Shown in pieces: positions 30,001 through 33,000 of a stretch of DNA of 34,435 nt; positions within the stretch are counted from its first letter, which is position 1, and the number at the start of each line of letters is the position of its first letter. The position numbers were made by a program. The DNA is from a virus (Duplodnaviria > Heunggongvirae > Uroviricota > Caudoviricetes), in the IMG/VR virus record IMGVR_UViG_2529293069_000011; one strand, given 5' to 3'.

Positions 30001-33000
30001 TGGTGTTGATGGTGCCATCGAGATGACCGAAGAGCGCGATGGGTGGCTCAAAATTTATAGCGATGATCCAGATGCCTTTGGTCTTCGTGTGAAAGGAGAC
30101 AGCATGTGGCCCAGAATAAAATCAGGAGAATATGTACTCATTGAGCCTAACACCAAAGTATTCCCGGGTGATGAGGTGTTTGTCAGAACCGTTGAAGGAC
30201 ACAACATGATTAAGGTTCTTGGCTATGACAGAGATGGAGAATACCAATTTACAAGCATTAACCAGGATCACAGGCCTATAACGTTGCCTTATCATCAAGT
30301 AGCAAAGGTGGAGTATGTGGCTGGTATTCTGAAGCAATCTCGCCATCTGGATGACATCGAGGCAAGGGAGTGGCTGAAAAGTTCGTGACTTCATCGTCAC
30401 ATAGCTGATAGCCAGTGGCCTGAAGAGACGTTTGGGTGATAGGAAGTAAGTTTTATGTTGACGGCACAGTCAACTTGGCATAGATTAATTAAACCAAGCC
30501 CAGCCCCGTTCGCAGACAATTGTTAATATCTGCATAACGGCTCTGGGCTATTTTTTTTGGGACTCTTATGAAGAAAGCAGCAATTTTAATTGATGCGGGT
30601 TTTTCATGCAGCGTGTTCATGCTACGCATCGTAAACACTTCGCCGAGCATGAACTGACTGGTGGGAAGATCGAAAAAAAGCAAGCCTAGAGGAAAAAACA
30701 ATAGCGGTAAACGCAGGTATGGAAACACTCAAGCTGAGTCTGCAAAGAAACATCAAAGAAATAAACGATAATCCCATCAACCCGGCCACCGAGCCGGGTT
30801 TTCTTTGCCTCACGATCCCCCCACCTAAAAAACATAACCAATTGTATTTATTGAAAAATTGATAGATACAACTTGCTAAACAACGCAATCCAGATCTCCC
30901 TCAAATCTCTTTATTTATCCTGTCGAATTCCTACAACAAAATAAAACACCATAAGAATCAATACGATATTTGAAAACCAAGAGAATTTATCATTTTGCTA
31001 TTGCCATTAATTTATCATTCCGATAAAGTTCACCCATCAGCAGGACGCACTACTCACCATGGCGGTGAATATACAACGATTCGAATATGAATCTACGGCG
31101 CTGACAAAGCGCAATAACCAAAGTGAACTTTGGGGTGTGGTGAAGGGTTCATGGACGGGAATATGTCGCACGTAAAGCGGCGAGGCCTGCGGGACTATTG
31201 CCGAATTGAAGTAGGCCGAAACAGGTCGAAATGGGTCTCCCACCTACCACACCACCAAAGTTCATCAGGAGGTCTATATGACACGCAGAACTCAGTTCAA
31301 AGGCAATTCACGTTCTCGTCGTCGTGAGCGTTTAAAGGCAAAGGCATTAGCTAACGGCGTGCTGGCCCGCGAAGAAGCAATAAGTTCAGAAGTATTACAC
31401 CGCCCTACTCTAAGCAGAGCGCAGATTCAGGCTAAAGGTACTCACGAAACGCCTGAGCGCATAGAAGACGCTAAGCCAATTAAGTTCATGGCACAGGACG
31501 TGATCTGGCAACAGAAAGAATACAGACGCAATCTGGAGCGAGCGGCCATTGTGTACGCGAATGAGTTTGGACATAAGCAACCAGAAACTGGTGTATGTCT
31601 TCCAAACGTAGCTCTTTACGCGGCAGGCTACCGGAAATCAAAACAACTGACAGCAAGATGACTTGTGTTGGTCGCCAGAAAATGAAATTAGGCAGCAAAC
31701 CACTTATTTGAGGTGAGATATGACAAAATCATGGAGCGTACCTTTTCCTGAATCAGAAACTGAACATGATGGAATGCCTGTTTTCTGGAGATTCCAGGCG
31801 ACAGTTGAAGAAGATGGGATAAAAATATTCGCACTTCAATATATAGCTTTTCATCAGACAGAGCATTATGCATGGTTGGTTCCTGCGCATTGGATTGTTA
31901 ATTTTAAACCAGCACCAAATCAGTGGTTACAGGAATGGAAACAAAAGAGAAATAGATATGCAATTAAGAAAGTAGCAAAAAATGCAGAAAGATCTTTTGC
32001 ATTCCCAACGAAGAAACTTGCCATTGAAAGTTTATTGCGCCGGAAGAAATACCATTTAATGAGAATCAAACAAGATTTGGCTGTTGTATCAACTCTTGTT
32101 GATGGGATGAAGAATATTGATACATCAATACCAGATATTGAATATAACTTTGGACACAACCAAGAAACAGAAAATTGGGTATTTTATTAGTACGAATAAG
32201 CACTGTGTATTCATTCCAGCGAGTGAATACACGGAGCAATGTCGCTCGTAACTAAACAGGAGCCGACTTGTTCTGATTATTGGAAATCTTCTTTGCCCTC
32301 CAGTGTGAGGGCCTTTTTATATGCATACCAATAACGCTTCACTCGAGGCGTTTTTCGTTATGTATAAATAAGGAGCACACCATGCAATATGCCATTGCAG
32401 GGTGGCCTGTTGCTGGCTGCCCTTCCGAATCTTTACTTGAGCGAATCACCCGTAAATTACGTGACGGATGGAAACGCCTTATCGACATACTTAATCAGCC
32501 AGGAGTTCCAAAAAATGGATAAAACACTTATGGCTATCCAGACTAAATTCACTATCGCCACTTTTATTGGCGATGAAAAGATGTTTCGTGAAGCCGTCGA
32601 CGCTTATAAAAAATGGATATTAATACAGAAACTGAGATCAAGCAAAAGCATTCACTACCCCCCTTTCCTGTTTTCCTAATCAGCCTGGCATTTCGCGGGC
32701 GATATTTTCACAGCCATTTTCAGGAGTTCAGCCATGAACGCTTATTACATTCAGGATCGTCTTGAGGCTCAGAGCTGGGAGCGTCACTACCAGCAGATCG
32801 CCCGTGAAGAGAAAGAGGCAGAACTGGCAGACGACATGGAAAAAGGCCTGCCCCAGCACCTGTTTGAATCGCTATGCATCGATCATTTGCAACGCCACGG
32901 GGCCAGCAAAAAAGCCATTACCCGTGCGTTTGATGACGATGTTGAGTTTCAGGAGCGCATGGCAGAACACATCCGGTACATGGTTGAAACCATTGCTCAC

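Follow-up and report, generated by a model that had tools for sequence, protein, structure and literature searches.

N-dependent antitermination in H-19B, P22 and lambda

The early antitermination module closest to the one described here is that of phage H-19B, for which it was shown that its N protein together with its nutR site mediates antitermination in vivo and in vitro (PMC3526286, PMC4499122). The nutR of H-19B contains two hairpins, a spacer hairpin and boxB, and in stalled elongation complexes N together with NusA/NusG protects the spacer and boxB, not boxA; moreover, the Rho-dependent terminator tR1 overlaps nutR in this phage (PMC3526286). For P22, an NMR structure of a complex between the N-peptide NAKTRRHERRRKLAIERDT and boxB RNA is available (1A4T; PMC11480772), and in the GACAA loop of this type the C is looped out (PMC12550061). 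Unlike the locus presented here, P22 has a canonical boxA (CGCTCTTTA) at both nut sites and no spacer hairpin. Phage lambda shares the genomic logic, with boxBs located downstream of PL and PR and nutR directly following cro, and its boxB pentaloop likewise begins with G and ends with A. However, the lambda boxB reads GCCCU[GAAGA or GAAAA]AGGGC, its boxA is canonical (CGCUCUUA), a spacer hairpin is absent and both the arginine-rich motif (ARM) and the C-terminus of lambda N are unrelated in sequence to those of the N protein encoded here.

The stretch of DNA that was analysed, called the window in the following, comprises 34,435 nucleotides of a virus of the Caudoviricetes (IMG/VR record IMGVR_UViG_2529293069_000011). 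It carries two short hairpins, one upstream of an N gene and one on the opposite strand between cro and cII, and with a probability of roughly 0.95 these are the nutL and nutR boxB of an N antitermination module of the H-19B/HK97/933W type. The assignment draws on the sequence, fold, strand and position of the hairpins, on their identity to H-19B and P22 nutL, on the family of the N protein and on the co-occurrence across relatives. The type of nut site is already known and experimentally characterised; the identification is correct and the find is an ordinary one.

Compared to H-19B, the nutL region from the operators through boxB differs in a single base in 151 nt, and the nutR region does not differ from the cro stop codon through boxB and beyond. 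The two boxB cores, their places, the spacer hairpins, the degenerate boxA and the positions of cI, cro and cII are as in H-19B, and 125 of 127 residues of N are identical (98%). All features of the H-19B/HK97/933W-type module, which is common to many Stx1/Stx2-converting phages, were found, i.e., an N protein of at least 98% identity, the same boxB at nutL and nutR and, in the spacer, a hairpin with CUACG behind it. Differences concern a segment of about 1.06 kb, which in H-19B separates cI from PL and which is absent from the window, and the interior of the N leader, which is of the HK97 type in the window (boxB 180 nt before the ATG) and of another type in H-19B (144 nt).

Two boxB hairpins within a lambdoid early region

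The gene order P-O-cII-nutR-cro / cI-PL-nutL-N in the window is that of a classical lambdoid early region. On the minus strand, P (27233-27934) and O (27931-28869) were assigned from ORFs and Pfam, cII (28902..29198) from its match to Pfam Phage_CII (2.7e-32) and the cro-like gene (29337..29570), the first of the PR operon, from an ORF at the place of the annotated cro of H-19B. On the plus strand, a cI-type repressor with an S24 peptidase domain (29684..30388; Pfam Peptidase_S24, 3.8e-16) lies at the place of the annotated cI of H-19B. It is followed by a putative PL promoter (31001..31036, plus strand), which was found by a promoter scan with a -35 element at 31001-31006 and a -10 element at 31024-31029 in the spacing TTGCCA-17-TAAAGT. 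This PL-like site is embedded in operator-like 17-bp repeats of the type TTTATC-N5-GATAAA, which form the putative OL (30986..31027; repeat families D1, D5 and D9, inverted repeat I1), and the same repeats fill the cI-cro intergenic region. The PL transcript would start at about 31036 (AUCAGCAGGACGC). The leader start ATCAGCAGGACGC, counted from 31036, is invariant with P22, for which the 5' end of the PL transcript is annotated at this place, and presumably also matches the start of the PL transcript of lambda.

The earlier note had reported a pair of P22-type boxB hairpins at 31098-31112 (+) and 29285-29297 (-), in the positions of nutL and nutR, and both were located exactly. In exact-sequence searches, GCGCTGACAAAGCGC occurs once in the window, at 31098-31112 (+), and TCGCTGACAAAGCGA is found at 29284-29298 (-). 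Compared to nutL, the nutR boxB UCGCUGACAAAGCGA retains the 13-nt core unchanged and replaces the outer G-C pair by U-A. The 13-mer CGCTGACAAAGCG has exactly two matches in the window, at 31099-31111 (+) and 29285-29297 (-); in dinucleotide shuffles, with up to one mismatch permitted, a mean of 0.08 matches was obtained by chance, and two matches were reached in one of 100 shuffles. That the two boxBs recur at the corresponding places of H-19B, HK97 and dozens of IMG/VR contigs is stronger evidence than these chance figures.

As RNA, the nutL boxB GCGCU[GACAA]AGCGC (31098..31112, plus strand) and the nutR boxB UCGCU[GACAA]AGCGA (29284..29298, minus strand) each form a stem of 5 bp capped by a GACAA pentaloop, since the flanking differences (G...C vs U...A) are compensatory. 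The folds, which had been suggested as a check, reach -7.1 kcal/mol for nutL (z = -3.2 compared to shuffles) and -5.6 kcal/mol for nutR (z = -3.8). The 81-nt nutR region as a whole folds no better than shuffles (z = -0.34), and its two local hairpins alone are significant. Covariation scoring over 12 aligned nut sites showed that 100% of the cells of the boxB helix are paired and that two of its five pairs changed on both sides; the score was reached by none of 500 shuffles, and in slid controls the paired fraction dropped to 17-54%. An Rfam scan of the whole window yielded no nut or boxB match, Rfam being without any boxB/nut family, and its sole match is the cIII thermoregulator RNA, which begins at 32369.

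The nutL boxB is identical in 15 of 15 positions to the annotated nutL boxB of P22 (NC_002371), and the RNA of the 1A4T structure is this same 15-mer (PMC11480772), so that the match to the P22 boxB given in the earlier note holds. The match applies to one of the two P22 sites, because the nutR boxB of P22 is ACCGCCGACAACGCGGU, whereas the window has the P22-nutL type at both sites. The RNA GCGCUGACAAAGCGC, i.e., a GACAA loop on a U-A-closed, G-C-rich stem, which characterises the P22-type boxB, is thus present, and the nutR boxB keeps the GACAA loop and the four inner pairs. For nutL, exact match and fold are joined by identity to the nutL of P22 and H-19B and to the 1A4T RNA, for nutR, sequence match and fold are joined by identity to the nutR of H-19B.

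Each boxB lies on the sense (transcribed) strand of its own operon, and the canonical nut positions are filled, nutL lying between PL and N and nutR between cro and cII. The nutL boxB is located 166 nt 5' of the N ATG (31278) and about 62 nt past the putative PL start. As the leader start is invariant with the annotated start of the P22 PL transcript, the nutL boxB would span roughly +63 to +77 in the PL transcript. With the cro stop at 29337 and the cII start at 29198, the nutR boxB follows the former by 38 nt and precedes the cII ATG by 85 nt. Both operons contain terminator-like sites further downstream. On the left, a terminator scan called two intrinsic-terminator-like hairpins (32295-32312 and 32333-32352; plus strand, together 32295..32352) between the ORF after N and cIII. 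On the right, past O, P and the next ORF, it called a strong, tR2-like hairpin (26897..26920, minus strand) of eight pairs (six G-C) with a U-run behind it. Both are presumed to be targets of N read-through.

Each of the two 15-bp elements is an inverted repeat also in the DNA, and both are situated in regulatory intergenic regions near operators, as would be expected if they were palindromic operators for a dimeric DNA-binding protein. However, the central GACAA is non-palindromic and yet, on opposite strands, is oriented alike with respect to transcription, which is expected for an RNA signal and not for a symmetric DNA site. The changes in the stem are compensatory, preserving the pairing and not the sequence, the repressor operators belong to another repeat family (TTTATC-N5-GATAAA) and the identical RNA was solved in complex with an N peptide. 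A role as DNA operator has next to no probability and was rejected on the strand sense of the loop and the compensatory stem changes.

A similar consideration applies to termination. The nutR region does have a role in termination, since nutR of H-19B and lambda overlaps the rut site of tR1 and its spacer is protected by Rho (PMC3526286), and this raises the question whether the two hairpins serve to terminate transcription or to load Rho (as rut elements) instead of loading N. However, both hairpins lack a U-run on their 3' side, and the terminator scan did not pick up either of them. Moreover, nutL has no overlapping Rho-dependent terminator, and while Rho protects the spacer of nutR, the G of the boxB loop is protected only in the presence of N and NusA/NusG (PMC3526286). 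The rut/tR1 function is an addition to N loading at nutR and not an alternative to it. A terminator role was rejected, as a U-run is lacking and the scan called neither hairpin, and overall this explanation is very improbable compared to the reading of both hairpins as boxB.

Spacer hairpins, boxA and the N leader

Next to boxB, both sites contain a second hairpin in the spacer. In nutL it consists of GAUUC-GAAUAU-GAAUC followed by CUACG (31078..31093, plus strand; from the fold of 31030-31130). Relatives have other stems at this place (GAUUCA/UGAAUC, GUCGA/UCGAC), and CUACG always comes next. In nutR, folding yields the spacer hairpin GGAC-AUUC-GUCC followed by UACG (29303..29314, minus strand), which is kept in H-19B, HK97, Oslo, S137, VT2-Sakai and 75/02. 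The spacer hairpins were read from individual folds, MAFFT placing the spacer stems of nutL and nutR out of register. A further hairpin, UCACC-AUGGC-GGUGA, is found in the 5' leader (31054..31068, plus strand), as indicated by its fold and by the alignment with H-19B and P22.

A boxA-like CGCTCTT had been expected in the vicinity of the two hairpins. Neither this element nor the canonical boxA of P22 was found near nutL or nutR in searches permitting up to one mismatch. At the place of boxA, nutR has CGCTATTTT and nutL has nothing recognisable. The equivalent positions of nutL (31068-31076, plus strand), directly after the leader hairpin, read AAUAUACAA and contain no boxA, and nutL has GUGAAUAUA where VT2-Sakai has GCUCUUUAAA. 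In nutR, a degenerate boxA-like CGCUAUUUU was read from the sequence 8 nt past the cro stop (29321..29329, minus strand), agreeing in seven of nine positions with boxA (CGCUCUUUA-like), and HK97-type relatives carry CGCUCUUUU at this place. For a nut site of the lambda type the missing canonical boxA would count as a defect. Here it is a feature of the H-19B subtype and no ground to exclude the sites, because H-19B itself is in the same state. Neely and Friedman reportedly found in 2000 that sites lacking the canonical boxA are the norm for the H-19B type and that boxA, NusB and S10 are dispensable for H-19B N, and they are said to have proposed that the spacer hairpin draws the flanking elements together.

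Downstream of the nutL boxB a long stem extends to the Shine-Dalgarno sequence of N (31118..31265, plus strand; fold z = -3.65). Its base is conserved and its interior is variable, the interior in the window being of the HK97 type and that of H-19B differing from it.

The N protein and its pairing with boxB

That an N gene lies beside nutL is borne out by the Pfam match of the 127-aa protein (31278..31661, plus strand; PF25694 N_peptide, 9.8e-16), whose ARM is FKGNSRSRRRERLKAKALA. Identity is 99.2% to N of HK97, 933W, HK106 and many Stx1/Stx2-converting phages and reaches 100% for several sequences from Stx phages and IMG/VR. It had been described as P22-like, which holds for two parts of the protein, the ARM core and the C-terminal 30 residues; otherwise it is of the H-19B/HK97/933W type and not P22 gp24. 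In BLASTP, the last 30 residues alone align with P22 N (70% identity), and a MAFFT alignment revealed the common ARM core F-G-N-x3-RR-x-ER-x4-A. Together with the C-terminal LPxVALYAAGxRKSKQxTAR this core is common to both proteins, whereas P22 N has 100 aa compared to 127 aa and the middle is not alignable.

In the numbering of the P22 N peptide, the ARM keeps N1, R5, R6, E8, R9 and A14, has conservative exchanges at four positions (K3->R, T4->S, R11->K, I15->L) and deviates at three (H7->R, R10->L, R17->N). The published RNA contacts of the P22 peptide include Asn1, Lys3, Arg5, Arg6, His7, Arg9, Arg11 and Ile15 (PMC11480772); of these, the window N retains N1, R5, R6 and R9 and has R in place of H7. 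As judged from sequence, an ARM of this kind could recognise the RNA bound by the P22 peptide. A PDB sequence search with N gave no meaningful match, the 1A4T peptide lying below the 20-residue cutoff of this search.

The earlier note had seen in the two hairpins and the N gene evidence for a specificity pairing of N and nut sites in this mosaic. The pairing as such is supported by comparison across relatives; it belongs to a known H-19B-type module and is not special to the mosaic. Among 80 IMG/VR loci with an N at least 99% identical to the one described here, the identical nutL boxB is present in 79, 143-276 nt 5' of the N ATG, and the flank of the 80th locus is too short to judge. The identical nutR boxB UCGCUGACAAAGCGA was found on the opposite strand in 58 of the 80 loci, 0.95-3.3 kb further upstream. 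Both boxBs are present in 61 loci if the window, H-19B and HK97 are counted in, and the DNA between the nut sites of these 61 loci falls into at least seven unrelated k-mer clusters, meaning that one and the same N/nutL/nutR set brackets different immunity cassettes.

In view of the mosaic nature of the window, for which phage records cover at most 48% of a 25-kb query, the nut sites might also be relics in a defective prophage, in which N antitermination no longer operates. However, N is a full-length ORF with 98-100% identity to N of the active phages H-19B, HK97 and 933W, and neither the two nut sites nor the PL leader nor any of cI, cro, cII, O and P is disrupted, which makes such a loss of function highly unlikely. 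On the preferred reading as a module of the H-19B type, N and the nut sites of this prophage are predicted to be active.

By analogy to the described systems, RNA polymerase would transcribe each nut site starting from PL (plus strand, about 31036) and PR (minus strand), and the nascent RNA would form the spacer hairpin and then the GACAA pentaloop of boxB. The arginine-rich N-terminus of N (31278-31661) would bind boxB, whose loop probably adopts the GNRA-like fold known from P22, in which the C is looped out. N would then recruit NusA to the spacer, and its C-terminus would contact and modify the polymerase. The modified polymerase may read through the Rho-dependent tR1 and the downstream intrinsic terminators, which would allow expression of cIII/kil/gam/bet/exo on the left and of cII/O/P and later genes on the right.

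The mosaic prophage thus has a complete and internally matched early antitermination module consisting of N and both RNA loading sites. Modules of this type occur in many Shiga-toxin-converting phages, in which N-dependent read-through feeds the expression of late and toxin genes. The assignment is of use for annotation and leads to the prediction that N in this prophage needs NusA and probably neither boxA, NusB nor S10.

Beyond the close relatives, N diversity was sampled from annotated phage records. Distant N homologues keep the C-terminal LPxVALYAAGxRKSKQxTAR and have other ARMs and other boxB loops. S137, SI8 and Ecl_MII_001 combine the ARM GSAAGRRRERRAALQNA with a GAAA tetraloop, and VT2-Sakai, ev207 and 75/02 combine the ARM GTAASRRRARRANLQSQ with a GAAA tetraloop on an unchanged CGCU/AGCG stem and spacer scaffold. 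HK620 and HK140 have the ARM DNARNRRRARRQAQREQA, the boxB UCCCGC[CGAAAU]GCGGGA and a canonical boxA. In the scaffold ACAAC - spacer hairpin - CUACG - CGCU[loop]AGCG, which is conserved in other respects, the loop is either GACAA or GAAA, a difference of a single C, and this alternation is in step with the ARM of N (GNSRSRRRERLKAKALA vs GSAAGRRRERRAALQNA or GTAASRRRARRANLQSQ). It is unlikely that the alternation represents a natural specificity switch that is as yet undescribed; if it did, N and boxB would form a recognition code with two states, and the module in the window would represent one of its alleles. Finally, a profile search of contigs with the alignment of the window N and P22 N returned two loci, one of which is a 394-bp contig labelled Xanthomonas pisi.

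Alternation of the boxB loop and the N arginine-rich motif

The nut scaffold of the window (ACAAC, spacer hairpin, CUACG and the stem CGCU..AGCG) is shared with the relatives S137 (L086), L087, L088, L089, VT2-Sakai (L090) and L091, in which a GAAA tetraloop replaces the GACAA loop found in the window's nut segments (29284-29345, nutR on the minus strand; 31068-31112, nutL on the plus strand). The two loops differ by one C, and the GAAA loop is accompanied by different sequences of the arginine-rich motif (ARM) of N, while the remainder of the protein is homologous. Judged from these sequences, the joint alternation of loop and ARM may represent a natural specificity switch.

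Variation of nutR and occurrence of N in other records

The upstream flank of nutR was compared among the 80 IMG/VR loci encoding the same N as the window (L003-L082). In these loci the boxA-like element of nutR varies in sequence, occurring as CGCUAUUUU (33 loci), CGCUCUUUU (26 loci) and CACUCUUUU (2 loci), and in one group the nutR spacer stem is GGGC/GUCC with a G-U wobble. In phage mEp213 (L094) two N genes are annotated in the PL operon (2312-2644 and 3797-4069); the distal N is of the HK620 type, yet the nutR boxB is lambda-type (GCCCUGAAAAAGGGC). The N of the window is also encoded with 100% identity on the 394-bp contig NZ_JPLE01000327.1 (L083) of a Xanthomonas pisi assembly, a contig that most likely represents contamination by an enterobacterial phage.

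The N leader and further elements of the early region

Between the nutL boxB and the Shine-Dalgarno sequence of N, the leader contains a long stem (31118-31265, plus strand; fold z = -3.65), which resembles the stem that RNase III processes in the N leader of lambda. Its base is kept in H-19B and HK97, whereas in H-19B its interior is replaced relative to the window. The interval from cI to PL (30389-30985) is approximately 1.06 kb shorter than in H-19B and contains only small ORFs and a terminator-like hairpin (30779-30800, plus strand). The cargo at this position varies across related phages; lambda, for instance, has rexAB here, and HK97 and Oslo have other ORFs. A match to the cIII thermoregulator element (Rfam Lambda_thermo; 32369-32427, plus strand; 88.5 bits, E = 1.6e-20) is located where the cIII-like ORF begins, and tandem iteron-like repeats of CCCTCGTTTTGAGGGAT and its variants within the O gene (28400-28525) look like a lambda-type replication origin. 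A promoter-like site (28844-28872, plus strand) and a strong terminator hairpin (28926-28953, plus strand) run antisense to cII at its 3' end; together they span 28844-28953, the location at which the oop RNA sits.
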